Shown: positions 10,358 through 16,023 of the stretch, in pieces | Layout of the letters: every line of letters starts with the position of its first letter | Numbering within the stretch: the stretch's first letter is position 1 | IMG/VR virus record: IMGVR_UViG_3300045988_128742 | Source of the DNA: a virus | Taxonomy: Duplodnaviria > Heunggongvirae > Uroviricota > Caudoviricetes | DNA length: 33,825 nt | Strand: one strand, 5' to 3' | Made by a program: the position numbers and the translations under genes | The notes under the pieces: generated by a model | Seen by the model: the letters and a program-made list of their open reading frames with translations, nothing else | Told to the model about the DNA's origin: nothing | Database searches by the model: none

Positions 10358-10374
10358 TTTTGTGGAGAAAGTTG

Positions 10375-10752
10375 ATGCGTGATATTCAAATGGTTCTGGA
10401 TCGTTGGGGAGCATGGGCGGCGAGTGATAGTTCAGGAGTAGACTATTCTCCTATAGCTGCTGGGTTTAAAGGGCTTCTTCCCTATACAAGCAAAACACGT
10501 CAGGCATGTTCAGATAGTGATGCATTAATTATTGAAGGTTGTCTTGCTCGTCTAAGGCAAAAAAGGCCGGACGAACATTCGCTTCTTGTTGCCCATTACC
10601 TATACGGTATCTCTAAAAGAAAGCTCGCCAAGGCTCGTAAAAAGGATGAGAAACTAATACGCATTGAGATACAGATGGCTGAGGGGTTTATTGATGGCTG
10701 CCTATCGATGCTGGAAATTAGTCTAGAGATGGACCCCGAAATTAAAGATTGA
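10375..10752 (+). CDS. Q: Late-gene antiterminator Q (phage 21-type, Phage_antitermQ family)
   Basis: N-terminus MRDIQMVLDRWGAWAA and C-terminal AEGFIDGCL motif match the Q21-type antiterminator family as recalled. ATG at 10375 with GGAGA SD; the track ORF starts at an upstream TTG. Confidence 0.8.
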   Translation: MRDIQMVLDRWGAWAASDSSGVDYSPIAAGFKGLLPYTSKTRQACSDSDALIIEGCLARLRQKRPDEHSLLVAHYLYGISKRKLAKARKKDEKLIRIEIQMAEGFIDGCLSMLEISLEMDPEIKD

Positions 10753-10759
10753 TTATTGA

Positions 10760-10783
10760 AGCCCGATTACTCGGGCTTTTGTT
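10760..10783 (+). terminator. Intrinsic terminator just downstream of Q
   Basis: Stem AGCCCG / CGGGCT with 6-nt loop followed by TTTGTT on the plus strand; the opposite-strand gene's stop codon lies in the loop. Confidence 0.6.
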
Positions 10784-11436
10784 CCACATCTCGAACATAG
10801 AGAATTACTGCTGACTTAATGTCACCATCGACGTGTTTTGCGTTAATGCTCAAATGTACAGGCTTTCTTTCCCACTCAGCTCGCTGCAATGCTTCTTTGT
10901 TTCCGGATTCATCAAGGAAAACATCCTGAACTACGCAGGTTAGACGTTGGTCGGTATCTACGCGTCGGACCTTAACTTTGAAACTCTCTGGGTCAGTATT
11001 ATTGACTTCTTCAATTCGGTAAATACCATCAATCCTCATTTCTGATGAACGTCTACGAGCATTCGTAACCAACTCTTTCGCCATTTCAGAATCAATAGTA
11101 ACGCCATCAATTTGAGCGTTATCTGAACGCACAAAGGATTTGACCATTTGGGTTTTAGCGTCATACGACATACGGTCCATGTTATCGAGAAGTGGTTTTT
11201 CCGCAATCATTTCTGAAATAACCCGCAGGCGTTTAGTTTCTTGCTCGCTCATGATCTGCATAGTCCGGAGATGTTCTTTCTCTCCATCCTTAGCAATTTC
11301 TGCAAGGCGAATATCTTTACGGTTGTCCAAGAACCGTTTAAATACTGTTACTCCGCCCCAGATGACTGCTGCGCCGAGAACAGTAAACATGATCTCAGTT
11401 GCGTTCATTTTACCAACAAGTTCCTGTGTGAGTTTG

Positions 11437-11445
11437 GTTAAAAAG
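11437..11445. repeat. Target-site duplication (left copy), GTTAAAAAG
   Basis: 9-bp direct repeat identical to 12497-12505, immediately flanking the IS inverted repeats. Confidence 0.85.
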
Positions 11446-12496
11446 GGCGTTGTTGCTCAAATCAGGGAACTATCCCGCAGTTTGGTGATCTGATCTCTTA
11501 GGTTCACCACCGGGAGCGCCAGATGGGCAAGTCCAAGCACAAGATCAGCAACTGGAAACAGTACAACCAAGCCTTGGTGCAACGTGGTTCGTTGACCGTC
11601 TGGATGGATGAGCAAGCCATCCAGCAGTGGCATTGCCAGACCCATCATGGCCGCCGAGGGCGAGGCTTCCATTACAGCGACTCCGCCATTGAAACCGCGC
11701 TGATGCTCAAGGCGGTATTCAAGCTACCGCTGCGTGCCTTGGAAGGCTTCATCAACTCGCTGTTCCAGCTGATGAATGTGCCCTTACAGTCGCCGGACTA
11801 CAGCTGTATCAGCAAGCGCGCCAAGACGGTCGAAATCAAGTACCGCCTACCGAGCCATGGCCCAGTAGCTCACCTGGTCATCGATGCCACCGGACTCAAG
11901 GTCTATGGCGAGGGCGAATGGAAAATTCGCAAGCACGGCAAGGAGAAACGCCGCGTCTGGCGCAAGCTTCACCTGGCCGTAGATGCGGCGACCCATGCCA
12001 TCGTCGCAGCCGAAGTCAGCCTGGAAACGGTGGGCGATAACGAGGTGCTGCCCACGCTGCTCAACCCCTTGCGCCGCAAGATAGAACAAGTCAGCGCCGA
12101 TGGTGCCTATGACACCAAAGCCTGTTATGCCCTACTACAAAAGAAGGGCGCCAAGGCCACCATACCGCCGAGAAAAAATGCGGCATTCTGGAAGACAGGC
12201 CATCCACGCAACGAGGCGGTTGCCGCGCTCAAGGCAGGAGAGCTGGAGCAATGGAAAAAGGACTCTGGCTATCATCAGCGCTCGATAGCTGAGACCGCCA
12301 TGTATCGCTTCAAGCAGCTCATCGGTCCGAAACTGAGTCTGCGGAGCTACAACGCCCAGGTGGGTGAGATCCTGGCTGGGGTAAAAGTCATGAACAAGGT
12401 CATAGGGCTTGGTATGCCCATTCGGCAGGCCGTCAACTAAGCCCGCCCGGCGGGTTGGGGAGCGAGTATCCGACTTTGGATTTGATCAACAAGGCC
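11446..12496 (+). mobile_element. IS903-group (IS5 family) insertion sequence, 1051 bp
   Basis: 18-bp terminal inverted repeats GGCGTTGTTGCTCAAATC (11446-11463) and GGCCTTGTTGATCAAATC (reverse complement of 12479-12496) flank one transposase gene, with a perfect 9-bp target duplication. Confidence 0.9.
11523..12440 (+). CDS. IS903-family transposase
   Basis: 305 aa; N-terminus MGKSKHKISNWKQYNQALVQRGSLT and core GEGEWK.RKHGKE.RR.WRKLHLAVD match IS903/IS102 transposase from memory. Confidence 0.9.
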   Translation: MGKSKHKISNWKQYNQALVQRGSLTVWMDEQAIQQWHCQTHHGRRGRGFHYSDSAIETALMLKAVFKLPLRALEGFINSLFQLMNVPLQSPDYSCISKRAKTVEIKYRLPSHGPVAHLVIDATGLKVYGEGEWKIRKHGKEKRRVWRKLHLAVDAATHAIVAAEVSLETVGDNEVLPTLLNPLRRKIEQVSADGAYDTKACYALLQKKGAKATIPPRKNAAFWKTGHPRNEAVAALKAGELEQWKKDSGYHQRSIAETAMYRFKQLIGPKLSLRSYNAQVGEILAGVKVMNKVIGLGMPIRQAVN

Positions 12497-12505
12497 GTTA
12501 AAAAG
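12497..12505. repeat. Target-site duplication (right copy), GTTAAAAAG
   Basis: Identical to 11437-11445. Confidence 0.85.
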
Positions 12506-13020
12506 CCATCAATGTTGATTTCTACTATTGAAGAACCCTGTTCTACCGTAACTTCTATTTCTAGGGCATCAAGTTCTTCTTTGGTCAGTTTGCGGACGTC
12601 AGGGACACCGTACTTGGCAAGGGCATATGATTTGTTGATTTGAGCTTGCATTTCAACAAATCCCTTCATAACTGAAGGTGTTAGCGATCTGTTGAATTTT
12701 TCACCGGTTAATCTGATGGTAAGGTTTGGCCATCCGTTGAAACTTAAACTGTCAGGTAAACCATAACCATCAAGATAGCTTTCAAGCAAATCGAAGGCTT
12801 GCTGCTCAGATTCAATGTCTACATGAATCTCATCAAACTTATCCAAAAATATGTCCTCATTCTAAGCCAACTGTCACCGTGAGGTTTGGCAACGCCTGCT
12901 TTATTTTTCGTTTTAAGCTGTGTGGCAAAAAAATAATGGAAAAACAGATAAAAATCACTAACGCGGTCCGCATTTTCTAGATTACTGTGTTAAGAGTGGT
13001 TACTTCGCCACACAACTTAA

Positions 13021-13044
13021 ACCCGCCGCTGAGCGGTTTTTTTG
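13021..13044 (+). terminator. Intrinsic terminator in the intergenic region upstream of the late genes
   Basis: GC stem (CCGC...GCGG) followed by seven T on the plus strand, directly after a 14-bp long-range inverted repeat (12913-12926 / 13007-13020). Confidence 0.5.
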
Positions 13045-13165
13045 TACCTGTAAACTTGGTGCAGCACAGTAAACACGCTGGTGGTCGTGAATACTGACTT
13101 TTTATCTTGCTGGCTTTTTAGACAAGAGTTATTGGTATGTCATGTTAACCAGAAGGGAAAAAGAC

Positions 13166-13369
13166 ATGCTAAAACAGCAAGATATGACAGAAACCGCCGC
13201 CGCAGTCCTTCATTTCTTACCTGCTGACAAGTGGGTAACGCCACGCATGATGACGAGAACTACCGGAGTAAGCGAAGCCCGGTGCCAGTTAATACTGACT
13301 CAGTTAGTTCTGGCGGGTCTGGCGAAGGATAACGGCGGGTACGGGAATAAATTCAGACGCTGCCAGTAA
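13166..13369 (+). CDS. Small putative winged-helix DNA-binding protein
   Basis: Track ORF 13142-13369; second ATG (13166) has a better SD (AAGGGA). HTH-like segment TPRMMTRTTGVSEARCQLILTQL. Confidence 0.4.
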   Translation: MLKQQDMTETAAAVLHFLPADKWVTPRMMTRTTGVSEARCQLILTQLVLAGLAKDNGGYGNKFRRCQ

Positions 13370-13519: not shown

Positions 13520-14572
13520 ATGAAAAATACTGTAAAAATAAACAGTGTTGATTTAATCAACGCTGATTGCCTGCATTTTATTCAGTCCCTGCCTGATGAT
13601 TCCATTGACCTGATTGTTACCGATCCGCCTTACTTCAAGGTGAAACCTAACGGTTGGGACAATCAGTGGAAAGGGGACGAAGATTACCTTAAGTGGCTGG
13701 ACCACTGTCTGGCCCAGTTCTGGCGGGTGTTAAAACCTGCCGGAAGCCTTTACCTGTTCTGTGGACATCGCCTGGCATCTGATATTGAGATCATGATGCG
13801 TGAACGTTTCAACGTGCTTAACCATATCATCTGGGCGAAGCCGTCCGGACGTTGGAATGGGTGTAATAAAGAAAGTCTGCGCGCATATTTTCCTGCCACA
13901 GAGCGCGTTCTGTTTGCTGAACATTACCAGGGGCCATATCGCGGCAAAAGTGACGGCTATGCGGCAAAAGAAAGGGAACTCAAACAGCACATAATGGCAC
14001 CGCTGATATCGTATTTCAGGGATGCTCGTGCCGAACTGGGTATAACGGCAAAACAAATTGCCGAAGCCACAGGTAAGAAAAATATGGTTTCCCACTGGTT
14101 TGGTGCCAGTCAGTGGCAGTTGCCGAATGAGGCTGACTATCGGAAGTTACAGGCACTGTTTTCCCGTATAGCGGCAGAGAAGTTTCAGGAACAACAACTG
14201 GAACAACCACACCACCAGCTGGTGGCATCTTATGATTCACTGAATCGCAAATATTCTGAATTGCTGGATGAGTTTAAATCTCTCCGGCGCTATTTCTCCG
14301 TATCAGTCTCCGTGCCTTATACCGATGTCTGGACGCATAAACCCGTTCAGTTCTACCCGGGTAAACATCCGTGCGAGAAACCGGCGGATATGCTCCGGCA
14401 AATAATCAATGCCAGTAGTCGACCTGGTGATCTGGTTGCTGATTTCTTTATGGGATCCGGTTCCACAATAAAAGCAGCAATGGCGCTGGGGCGTCGGGCG
14501 TTAGGTGTTGAACTTGAGTCAGAGCGGTTTAATCAGACGGTGAAAGAGGTAAGTGAACTGGTGGGGAAATAA
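13520..14572 (+). CDS. Beta-class DNA methyltransferase (N6-adenine or N4-cytosine), orphan
   Basis: 350 aa; catalytic DPPY motif near the N-terminus (LIVTDPPYF) and AdoMet-binding FxGxG motif near the C-terminus (DFFMGSGST), i.e. beta-class motif order. No restriction endonuclease candidate adjacent. Confidence 0.8.
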   Translation: MKNTVKINSVDLINADCLHFIQSLPDDSIDLIVTDPPYFKVKPNGWDNQWKGDEDYLKWLDHCLAQFWRVLKPAGSLYLFCGHRLASDIEIMMRERFNVLNHIIWAKPSGRWNGCNKESLRAYFPATERVLFAEHYQGPYRGKSDGYAAKERELKQHIMAPLISYFRDARAELGITAKQIAEATGKKNMVSHWFGASQWQLPNEADYRKLQALFSRIAAEKFQEQQLEQPHHQLVASYDSLNRKYSELLDEFKSLRRYFSVSVSVPYTDVWTHKPVQFYPGKHPCEKPADMLRQIINASSRPGDLVADFFMGSGSTIKAAMALGRRALGVELESERFNQTVKEVSELVGK

Positions 14573-14648
14573 TTCTGGTGGCCACGTTGCGTGGCCTTTT
14601 TATTTCCAACACAGCACCCGCAAATATCGCGAGGTGAGAGATGACGAA

Positions 14649-14984
14649 ATGCCTCATAACCCAAATACCTGGCCGGACTGGCTGGAGTTGTTTCAGAGCT
14701 GGTGGCGTGGAGACACACCGCTGGGTGCAGTGATTATGTCGATCGTTATGGCTGGTTTGCGCATCGCCTATTTTGGCGGTGGTGGTGGCTGGAAGCGAAA
14801 AACGCTCGAGATTTTGCTATGTGGCGCTCTGACGCTGACCTTTGCATCCGCTCTTGAGTATGTCGGATGGCCTAAATCGCTTTCTGTTGCCATTGGTGGT
14901 GGCGTGGGGCTGATCGGTGTCGATGCTATTCGTGGGGCTGCAATGCGAGTAATCGGTAACAAATTTGGTAGCTCGAAGGAGTAA
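14649..14984 (+). CDS. Holin, lambda S-like class I
   Basis: Three hydrophobic segments and a charged C-terminus; pattern resembles lambda S. The start is uncertain: an in-frame GTG at 14553 with AGAGG SD is an alternative. Confidence 0.7.
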   Translation: MPHNPNTWPDWLELFQSWWRGDTPLGAVIMSIVMAGLRIAYFGGGGGWKRKTLEILLCGALTLTFASALEYVGWPKSLSVAIGGGVGLIGVDAIRGAAMRVIGNKFGSSKE

Positions 14985-14987
14985 TTT

Positions 14988-15464
14988 ATGCAGGCACTAA
15001 ATTCCCAGCGTAAAGCTTTCCTGGATATGGTGGCATGGTCAGAAGGAACGGATAACGGGCGACAACCGACACGTAACCACGGTTATGATGTTATTGTTGG
15101 TGGCGAACTGTTCACTGATTACTCCGATCACCCTCGCAAACTTGTCACGCTAAACCCCAAACTCAAATCAACAGCCGCCGGACGTTACCAGCTTCTTTCA
15201 CGCTGGTGGGATGCTTACCGTAAACAGCTTGGCCTGAAAGATTTTTCTCCAGAAAGCCAGGACGCTGTAGCTCTGCAGCAGATTAAAGAGCGTGGTGCTT
15301 TACCGATGATTGACCGCGGCAGTATTCGTCAGGCAATCGACCGTTGCAGCAATATCTGGGCGTCGTTACCTGGTGCAGGTTACGGTCAGTATGAACATAA
15401 AATCGGTGACCTGATTGCCCGATTTAAAAAAGCTGGTGGGGTAGTAAATGAAGCTGAGATATAA
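14988..15464 (+). CDS. R: Endolysin, lambda R-like lytic transglycosylase
   Basis: 158 aa; near-identity by eye to lambda R over long stretches (NQRKAFLDM.AWSEGTDNGRQ.TRNHGYDVIVGGELFTDYSDHPRKLVTLNPKLKST.AGRYQLLSRWWDAYRKQLGLKDFSP). Confidence 0.9.
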   Translation: MQALNSQRKAFLDMVAWSEGTDNGRQPTRNHGYDVIVGGELFTDYSDHPRKLVTLNPKLKSTAAGRYQLLSRWWDAYRKQLGLKDFSPESQDAVALQQIKERGALPMIDRGSIRQAIDRCSNIWASLPGAGYGQYEHKIGDLIARFKKAGGVVNEAEI

Positions 15465-15840
15465 GCTGGTTATTGTTGCCTTCGTTGTTACCGTCATTGG
15501 TTCCTTCATCTGGTCTGCCGGGCATTACTACAGCAAATATCAGCACGAAAAGGAGCGTGCTGATGAGGCTGTACGAAATGCTGAATCAGCAACTGCTATT
15601 ACCCGTAACGTTCTGCAATCACTGCAAATCATCAATACAGTTATAGAGGCTAACCAGCATGCAAAACAGCAGATCGCACTGGAGTCACAGAGAACCCAGG
15701 AAGATATCAAAGTGGCTGTTGCGGATGATGATTGTGCTTCACGTCATGTGCCTGCTGCCGCTGCTGACCGGTTGCGGAAGTACGCGAACAGTTTACGTAC
15801 CGATTCCGGCGGTACCGTTGCCAGCAAGCCTGACTACTGA
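15448..15840 (+). CDS. Rz: i-spanin (Rz-like)
   Basis: N-terminal TM segment LVIVAFVVTVIGSFIW followed by a charged coiled-coil-like region; start overlaps the endolysin 3' end. Confidence 0.75.
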   Translation: MKLRYKLVIVAFVVTVIGSFIWSAGHYYSKYQHEKERADEAVRNAESATAITRNVLQSLQIINTVIEANQHAKQQIALESQRTQEDIKVAVADDDCASRHVPAAAADRLRKYANSLRTDSGGTVASKPDY

Positions 15841-15997
15841 AACTCCCCAGCCAGTCATTCCCGAGCCGCTGACCTATGGGGCCAGTCTGGATCTGAATGT
15901 GAGCCTGCTTTCGGCGTTGGGACAATGCAATATTGACAAAGCGGGGATTCGAAGTATCGAGATGCGCCGTAACGCTTTGCTGGCAGCAGGCAAATAG
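15725..15997 (+). CDS. Rz1: o-spanin lipoprotein (Rz1-like), overlapped architecture
   Basis: Alternate frame starting inside Rz; signal peptide with lipobox LLTGC; Pro-rich mature region; extends past the Rz stop. Confidence 0.65.
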   Translation: MMIVLHVMCLLPLLTGCGSTRTVYVPIPAVPLPASLTTETPQPVIPEPLTYGASLDLNVSLLSALGQCNIDKAGIRSIEMRRNALLAAGK

Positions 15998-16023
15998 TCC
16001 GGACAAAGAACAGGAATATATTT

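Follow-up and report, generated by a model that had tools for sequence, protein, structure and literature searches.

Late promoter units of lambdoid phages

In phage lambda, late transcription starts at a constitutive promoter, PR', adjacent to the antiterminator gene Q, pauses early, and in a lysogen ends as a short terminated RNA of 194 nucleotides (nt), with Q required for read-through into the lysis and morphogenesis genes (the arrangement PR'-qut-6S RNA-tR'). We have analysed a stretch of viral DNA of 33,825 nt (IMG/VR record IMGVR_UViG_3300045988_128742, referred to here as the window), and its plus strand probably carries, at 12941–13043, the PR' promoter, leader and first terminator of a lambdoid prophage with a Q of the 21/933W family. 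The likeness to lambda is one of logic, as the lambda Q belongs to PF03589 and the window Q to PF06530, and the predicted leader RNA is only ~46–49 nt long. An earlier note on this DNA had proposed a PR'-qut-tR' unit with Q-dependent read-through, and comparative evidence favours this core proposition: leader and terminator follow Q directly in relatives without intervening genes, the -10 region is conserved, a palindrome follows the Q clade, and a start has been mapped in the prophage Sp5. Three components of that proposal, a long inverted repeat as part of the RNA, the position of the promoter and the alternative of an independent small RNA, are not supported by the comparison. The placement draws on sequence features and their conservation, on synteny and the Q family, and on a homologous unit whose RNA ends have been mapped, and by these the unit appears to be a classical Q-dependent cassette homologous to the PR' region of 933W-type Shiga toxin (Stx) phages, and so a known kind of element.

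Phage 21 shares the Pfam Q family of the window and has its Q-binding element upstream of the start site, within the promoter (Shi et al. 2019, PMC6606751; Yin et al. 2019, bioRxiv 651190). Q21 binds two TGAGCA direct repeats centred near -21 and -13 (PMC6606751), whereas these repeats are absent from the window unit, which has instead, counted from A12995, a palindrome of 9 bp at about -32 to -24; the window Q is also shorter, at 125–126 amino acids (aa) compared with 162 aa for the Q21 chains. The phage 21 pause element overlaps the start site, and pause capture occurs with an 11-nt RNA. At the pR' pause of phage 82 there is a -10-like element, a GCC discriminator at +15–17, and an AT-rich segment at +18–25, with pausing at U+25/26 (Bird, Strobel & Roberts 2016, PMC5001585), and the 82 Q constitutes a third family, PF06323 (Yin et al. 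2019, bioRxiv 651190). HK97 was considered as a possible source of an 82-type Q, was judged from its length of 207 aa to be lambda-type, and was not used. In Sp5, the Stx2a prophage of E. coli Sakai, the primary PR' start was mapped by differential RNA sequencing (dRNA-seq), the tR' 3' end lies 258 nt downstream of it, and RNase E cuts at +173 in GU/AUU (Sy, Lan & Tree 2020, PMC7547250).

A probable PR' unit in the window

The window Q gene is at 10372–10752 on the plus strand, with its ATG at 10375 (126 aa as annotated in RefSeq relatives), upstream of the proposed unit and on the same strand. Its product matches PF06530 (Phage_antitermQ, E=2.1e-52), a recognised Q family which is that of phage 21 (Yin et al. 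2019, bioRxiv 651190), as well as PHROG 79 (anti-termination protein Q-like); the match to the phage 21 Q structures 6JNX and 6P18 is distant and weak (E=7e-4). The homologue in E. coli PCN061 is annotated as 'antiterminator Q family protein', and Q933W of Sp5, also PF06530, is 46–47% identical to the window Q.

The promoter layout of Sp5 is homologous to that of the window, with a palindrome, an A-tract, TAnnnT, TGnTAAGAG, GTGGTTAC..GCCAC and then AACCCGCC...GGGTTTTTTT, and the Sp5 sequence following Q933W reads TTTACGATCGTAAAAATCTGCATATCA-TGATAAGAGTGGTTACATTGCCACGCAGTCGAACCCGCCGATGCGCGGGTTTTTTTG. Only one position in the Sakai sequence (L128:1046) fits both of the published RNA ends, such that +173 and +174 are the U and the A of a single GTATT and +258 is the last T of the tR' T-run. 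This position is the second-last base (A) of TGATAAGAG, 7 nt past TATCAT, and it aligns with A12995 of the window; the first 28 leader bases are identical at 24 positions. We therefore infer that PR' transcription starts at about A12995, with an uncertainty of 12989–12996 because the spacer of this promoter type is awkward and there is an alternative -10, TAGATT (12978–12983), which is not conserved. In Sp5 the unit abuts Q and the palindrome overlaps the Q stop codon, whereas the window unit is 2.2 kb from Q.

The adjacency seen in Sp5 recurs in other relatives. The 295-nt region 12847–13141 matches 229 phage records; about a quarter of the complete E. coli genomes (1411 of 5426) contain at least part of it, with 82 containing the whole, and no features are annotated for the region in the 20 identical E. 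coli records listed. The homologous segments are nested, with left edges at 12941 for phage 1720a-02 and the yecE-type Stx2 phages, 12950 for cdtI and mEp460_4F5, 12988 for PhiR40_1 and P27, and 13020 for mEp460, Ayreon and Stx2c phages. The Q stop of 1720a-02 is right at the start of the homologous block, and a small open reading frame (ORF) and a methylase follow within 183 nt of Q. In this phage and 16 further loci there are no genes (cargo) between Q and the leader, and the Q stop lies 26–37 nt before the block opening with TGTTAAGAG. In the window the distance from the Q stop to 12988 is 2235 nt (1175 nt without an insertion sequence, IS), the leader unit being non-adjacent to Q because a cargo gene and the IS have been inserted, not because the unit is absent.

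To this set we added an exact search for TGTTAAGAGTGGTTACTTCGCC in viral contigs, which gave 120 stretches and, with the loci fetched earlier, 127 usable loci. The 60 nt upstream comprise 45 distinct sequences, and position counts were made on 43 distinct sequences over -45 to +8, numbered relative to 12988. The upstream sequences are of five mutually unalignable types, each with a short palindrome and then an A/T tract; the palindromes are GCGGTCCGC (type A, as in the window), GCGTACGC (type B), TTTAC(A/G)ATCGTAAA (type C), GGAATTCC (type D) and TGTTATAACA (type E).

The elements of the predicted promoter lie within 12941–12995, and not mainly in 12880–12960 as had been suggested previously. 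An A-rich, UP-element-like tract at 12941–12957 forms the left edge of the module common to the cargo-free phages; A is enriched at -38 to -31 across the 43 sequences (38 of 43 at -34, for example), and the enrichment is kept across independent cargo junctions. It is followed by a -35-like CTAACG at 12958–12963, overlapping the palindrome (12963–12971), and by the -10 hexamer TACTGT at 12983–12988, which sits where Sp5 has TATCAT 7 nt before the mapped start. The -10 is conserved as TAnnnT, with T(-5) in 41/43, A(-4) in 43/43 and T(0) in 43/43 sequences, the last count being predetermined as T(0) (12988) is fixed by the search pattern; neighbouring positions vary. In types C, D and E the -10 is partnered at 16–17 bp by TTTACG/TTTACA, TTGCGG or TTGTGT, with weight-matrix scores of 6.3–8.9 (6.3–9.2 with Sp5 included), compared with a window background of ~1 in 1000 positions scoring 5 or more. 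The -35-like hexamer in types C, D, E and Sp5 either shares bases with the 5' part of the palindrome or immediately precedes it. The equivalent in types A and B is (C/T)TAACG at 18–19 bp, which is poor.

The nearest upstream Q was located in 113 loci and the Q proteins were clustered at 68% identity. Palindrome type coincides with Q cluster in all 113, despite the presence of 30 classes of cargo. GCGGTCCGC is found in all 44 loci of the window's Q cluster and in a truncated singleton, GCGTACGC in all 38 of the next cluster, types C and E in a third cluster, and GGAATTCC in P27 alone. A single Q cluster spans 18–23 different distances between Q stop and leader, and overall these range from 26–37 nt in the cargo-free loci to 3.7 kb. 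That the palindrome remains matched to Q when the intervening DNA changes is as expected of a Q-binding element, and the copy at 12963–12971, the only exact copy of GCGGTCCGC in the window, is a candidate for this role.

The predicted PR' RNA (12995–13043, plus strand; AGUGGUUACUUCGCCACACAACUUAAA) would be ~46–49 nt long with its 3' end in a T-run, and folds into two hairpins (-12.6 kcal/mol, z=-1.85). Its 5' part belongs to a leader block at 12988–13021 that is common to the Q clades, and that includes TGnTAAGAG, a GTGGT/GCCAC hairpin (12996–13000 / 13007–13011), GCC (13007–13009) and ACACAACTT (13010–13018). In a seven-phage alignment the block opens exactly at TGTTAAGAG (12988) and extends through GTGGTTACTTCGCCACACA(A/G)CTTAAA; six of the seven phages have it in identical or near-identical form, with the hairpin loop and T-run beyond it varying, and it is present as a single copy in the window. 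We regard it as a candidate sigma-dependent pause region. Within it, the segment TGGTTACTTCG resembles lambda PR' +7 to +17, GGGTTAATTCG. Two candidates for the pause element are TGnTAAGAG(T), which overlaps the start and would fit the position of the pause in phage 21, and TTACTT/TACTTC followed by GCC, as in phage 82; neither is a good match in the window allele. Compared by published description only, the window fits the phage 82 layout, with GCC at 13007–13009 (+13 to +15), then ACACAACTT and TT at 13017/13018 (+23/+24), although the phage 82 transcript starts with AAA and its -10-like element is near consensus, with an extended -10 (PMC5001585).

The first intrinsic terminator after PR' (t1/tR') is predicted at 13019–13043 and consists of AAA, a hairpin at 13025–13037 and seven T at 13037–13043; the earlier note had pointed out the hairpin and the seven T. 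The stem, GCCGC-TGA-GCGGT, has five pairs of which four are G-C, and a G follows the T-run at 13044. A scan match alone is weak evidence for such a site, as 12 sites were found in 4.5 kb where 4.8 are expected, and the hairpin is credible because it is conserved and similarly positioned in the relatives: hairpin and T-run are kept in 38 of 39 leader variants, with the exception (L115) carrying unrelated sequence there. The window allele, in which one stem G has been lost, is the commonest in the sample. No Rfam family matched the region at the gathering threshold, and in a permissive search of 12700–13300 the best match was STnc130 on the minus strand, with 25.2 bits against a threshold of 55 and E=0.16; a literature search using the leader sequence returned only unrelated papers.

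In the proposed scheme, the host sigma-70 RNA polymerase would start near A12995, using TACTGT, the weak -35-like CTAACG and the upstream A-tract, and in the absence of Q would stop at the hairpin and U7 (13025–13043) to release the ~46–49-nt RNA. After induction, Q would be made and bind near the promoter, with GCGGTCCGC at 12963–12971 as the candidate site, and would load onto polymerase paused in the leader, giving read-through of the terminators at 13043 and 14580 and expression of the small ORF, methylase, holin, lysozyme, Rz and terminase genes. The unit would normally abut the Q stop, and here a minus-strand cargo gene, hit later by an IS, would have come to sit between them. Our confidence in the exact start, pause site, Q-binding element and termination efficiency is lower than in the unit as a whole. 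Correct placement of PR' and its first terminator tells which genes are silent in lysogens (small ORF, methylase and lysis genes, along with stx2 in relatives) and which are expressed independently, namely the leftward cargo.

Evidence weighing against the unit, and alternatives

Several observations weigh against the proposed unit. A consensus sigma-70 scan found no plus-strand promoter here; the combination CTAACG-19-TACTGT has a negative weight-matrix score in the window allele, without a consensus-quality -35 or spacer, and the best local alternative (ATCACT-18-TAGATT) scores only 4.7. Neither the scan nor the matrix singles out a promoter, and the promoter call therefore rests on comparative data, by which the window allele is presumed to be active. 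Relative to the Q-binding element of phage 21 (PMC6606751), the palindrome is shifted ~8 bp upstream, and its association with Q could reflect tight linkage: when cargo class is tabulated against palindrome type, no class is shared between types, and linkage and selection are inseparable in this tabulation for that reason. By inspection, a good -10-like pause element is not evident in the window leader, which has TACTTC/TTACTT where Sp5 has TACATT.

The terminator raises similar doubts. The window allele has four to five pairs, and the fold of the whole RNA, at -12.6 kcal/mol, compares with about -18 in most alleles (AAACCCGC...GCGGGUUU). When 21 variants of the leader hairpin and terminator were tested for covariation, pairing was seen in 92.6% of cells, with zero compensatory changes and no excess over shuffles, so that it is form and position, and not covariation, that speak for the hairpins; L062 and L070, which have CCTC...GAGG-type stems shifted in the alignment, were left uncounted. 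Lastly, what has been published as tR' in Sp5 is a second terminator, at +258, and that paper does not mention the homologous first hairpin, at +27 to +51 (PMC7547250); this hairpin therefore either leaks or its ~50-nt product escaped detection. The Sp5 hairpin is CCCGC-CGATGC-GCGGG followed by TTTTTTT (L128:1066–1096; NC_002695.2 ~1,266,365–1,266,395). For Stx phages of this Q family, both the hairpin-U7 at +27 to +51 and the clade palindrome are additions to the published description (PMC7547250), from which they are absent.

Phage Ayreon places the same terminator in a different setting. It has a lambda-family Q (PF03589) and a lambda-like PR' (TTGCAT-17-TAAGAT) followed by AACGATGGG, and at about +45 to +65 it carries AACCCGCCACTGAGCGGGTTTTTTTG, which is the terminator cassette of the window and is annotated 'terminator'. 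The cassette is therefore the first terminator after PR' in two Q families. Two copies (L003:1813–1856 and L003:2492–2530) flank two small ORFs, the second copy being the homologue of the window terminator, which suggests that the cassette serves in addition as a joint for recombination at a second cargo position.

The Ayreon arrangement bears on an explanation in which the hairpin and T-run constitute just a module-boundary or insulating terminator, stopping early-operon or antisense read-through, with the late promoter elsewhere (in 13045–13141 or the 3' end of Q). Homology to Ayreon, mEp460 and the Stx2c phages does begin only at 13020, the homologous Ayreon copy is a second terminator beyond two small ORFs, the block 13045–13141 is 97–98% conserved, and weak plus-strand promoter candidates at 13029–13056 (6.3) and 13119–13146 (5.8) equal any near 12980. 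These candidates are, however, no better than chance level, the Q 3' end has no copy of the promoter module, and the first Ayreon copy is directly after the lambda-type PR'. Moreover, the Sp5 start maps to the TGnTAAGAG block and not past the first hairpin, and both the TAnnnT conservation and the Q-linked palindrome would be left unexplained. We consider a pure boundary terminator unlikely.

A second explanation, compatible with the PR' unit, is that the short RNA acts in trans as a small RNA (sRNA) comparable to StxS, with constitutive synthesis in lysogens, Hfq binding via its 3' hairpin and U-tail, and antitermination secondary. In Sp5 the 258-nt RNA, which ends at the second terminator, yields the 74-nt StxS-S on cleavage by RNase E (PMC7547250), a precedent for trans action by short PR'-derived RNAs. 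The predicted window RNA likewise ends in a hairpin and U7, and its sequence is common to many prophages, at least part of the region being in the 1411 E. coli genomes noted above. In contrast to Sp5, the window has no second terminator ahead of its first late ORFs. Its similarity to Sp5 stops at ~+55, and the unit is therefore not StxS. A short-word blastn comparison of Sp5 +1 to +258 with the window gave only a 14-nt match (Sp5 +41 to +54, the end of the first terminator) and otherwise chance-level matches of 12 nt or less. The absence of similarity to StxS-S and of an Rfam family, the modest fold (z only -1.85), and the fact that promoter escape, pausing and termination explain the shared sequence equally well make a primary role in trans improbable.

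The long inverted repeat

The earlier note drew attention to a 14-bp inverted repeat upstream of the hairpin (12913–12926 / 13007–13020, 13 of 14 complementary). This repeat is present, and is nested in longer arms of 18 nt at 12912–12929 (TTTAAGCTGTGTGGCAAA) and 13004–13021 (TTCGCCACACAACTTAAA), 74 nt apart and complementary at 16 of 18 positions (89%). Comparable complementarity between the 245 nt upstream and the 60-nt leader arises in 1 of 2000 mononucleotide shuffles, and the 15-mer GCCACACARCTTAAA occurs in the window only at the two arm sites, with 0.12 expected. The left arm, 66–83 nt upstream of the predicted PR' start, covers the point at which the leftward cargo transcript is predicted to begin, as there is for this transcript a weak minus-strand promoter candidate, GTGATT(12958)-17-TATTTT(12935), with a score of 6.5 and a start at ~12923, inside the arm.

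The two arms have different distributions. The left arm is confined to one cargo class out of 30, and no counterpart was found in those phages of the seven-phage alignment with other cargo or without cargo. The right arm, contained within the candidate pause region, is common to phages without any left arm. In a diverged homologue of the cargo (L110) only 13 of 18 positions pair, and single-base deletions have occurred in both arms without restoring the pairing; both hexamers of the cargo promoter, as read from the alignment, are kept there (GTGCTT and TATTTT). In L030, where the copies vary, each copy separately carries A or G in GCCACACA(A/G)CTTAAA, and L030 has the alternative purine in both; the resulting combinations, C.A in the window and U.G in L030, are non-complementary, the opposite of compensation.

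These patterns bear on the possibility that the repeat is functional, with the arms pairing in a transcript from upstream of 12912 (by Q read-through) or in the leftward cargo mRNA region to regulate termination at 13043 or cargo expression, or with both copies of GCCACACARCTTAAA binding one factor. The low frequency in shuffles, the coincidence of the left arm with the predicted cargo transcript start, and the retention of the GCCACACA(A/G)CTTAAA motif in each copy with the alternative base in both L030 copies can be cited for it, as can the predicted fold of a hypothetical 140-nt plus-strand RNA (12905–13044), in which the arms are paired (-36.5 kcal/mol, z=-2.85). Against it stand the restriction of the left arm to one cargo class, the non-compensating differences, the decay in L110, the presence of the right arm without the left, and the exclusion of the left arm from the predicted PR' RNA, and we regard a functional repeat as very unlikely.

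The long inverted repeat was accordingly rejected as part of the short RNA, as it is not conserved across cargo classes and has decayed in L110; with its left arm upstream of the predicted start, cargo-specific and gone in other cargo classes, the short-RNA element originally envisaged is not upheld. The right arm is strongly conserved presumably because it is within a functional leader. The left arm is most likely incidental, a scar of cargo acquisition, or a piece of the cargo's own promoter, leader or control region.

The region between Q and PR'

The earlier note had placed Q 2.2 kb upstream, displaced by an accessory gene and an IS, and had seen no plus-strand gene upstream of the hairpin. 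Both points agree with our analysis: Q ends at 10752, the gap is occupied by a minus-strand cargo (moron) gene (10767–12846) split by a 1051-bp IS, and this gene, starting at 12846, is the nearest to the hairpin. The cargo gene remains as ORFs at 10767–11408 and 12433–12846 and is intact in E. coli PCN061 (339 aa, L001:3981–5000); its product belongs to PHROG 6191, labelled unknown function (E=1.6e-152), and matched no family in Pfam or PADLOC. The IS is of the IS5 family (11446–12496, plus strand) and encodes a 305-aa DDE transposase at 11523–12440 that matches the Pfam families DDE_Tnp_1_5 and DDE_Tnp_1. It is absent from PCN061 and is flanked by a 9-bp target duplication; in a blastn comparison of L001 with the window, the alignment is interrupted at 11445/12497 and its two parts overlap by 9 nt in L001.

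A hairpin, AGCCCGA-TTAC-TCGGGCT followed by TTTG (10760–10780, with the stem-loop ending at 10777; read from the sequence), is located 8 nt past the Q stop. It overlaps the stop codon of the convergent cargo gene, whose ORF ends at 10767, and is probably a shared or bidirectional terminator. Only 14 nt separate the Q stop from the cargo stop and these are taken up by the hairpin, and therefore there is no room for a promoter next to Q.

Cargo is found between the Q stop and the leader in 97 loci, is 0.5–3.7 kb in length and falls into 30 sequence classes, in 28 of which the main ORF is on the minus strand. When nine cargo proteins, one per class, were searched with PADLOC, two matched: one is PDC-S20/KAP-NTPase-like (E=2e-176) and the other an OLD/HEC-04-type ATPase (E=2e-36). 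No description of a cargo slot between Q and PR' was found in a brief literature search. Tentatively, and with rather more doubt than confidence, we suggest that in 933W/21-family prophages the Q-PR' junction is a hot spot at which leftward cargo, including anti-phage defence genes, is swapped, that the clade palindrome is the Q-binding element of this large Q subfamily, and that a ~50-nt leader RNA is made constitutively in lysogens, perhaps with an StxS-like function in trans. The slot is a less familiar by-product of this analysis, and would be a practical place to seek new prophage-encoded defence genes.

Genes downstream and position of the prophage

Between the terminator and the first late ORF there is an untranslated stretch (13045–13165, plus strand) that is 97–98% identical in phages with other Q families. 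The late genes are on the same strand as Q and begin with the small ORF (13166–13369, 67 aa, PHROG 331) and a DNA methyltransferase gene (13520–14572), followed in the gap between methylase and holin by a second, stronger terminator, GGCCACG-TTG-CGTGGCC and TTTTTATTT (14580–14605, with the stem-loop ending at 14596), which has a 7-bp stem with six G-C pairs. As the next terminator is only at 14580, a leak at 13043 would express the small ORF and methylase and not the lysis genes. The holin gene is at 14649–14984, and lysozyme, Rz and terminase genes are annotated downstream in the PCN061 homologue.

A perfect 10/10 inverted repeat, 13103–13112 (TATCTTGCTG) and 13175–13184 (CAGCAAGATA), has between its arms the ribosome-binding (Shine-Dalgarno) site and the ATG (13166) of the 67-aa ORF, whose translation it might control.

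The only Rfam match above the gathering threshold is a tRNA at 12–84. The tRNA-Thr(CGT) gene (12–87) is at the very start of the window, a position consistent with a lambdoid prophage integrated beside that tRNA gene. Further along the window, the segment following an Rz-type gene (15439–16023) differs from PCN061 (L001:7584–8916), which has there the iss (increased serum survival) lipoprotein gene, and this segment is another mosaic joint.

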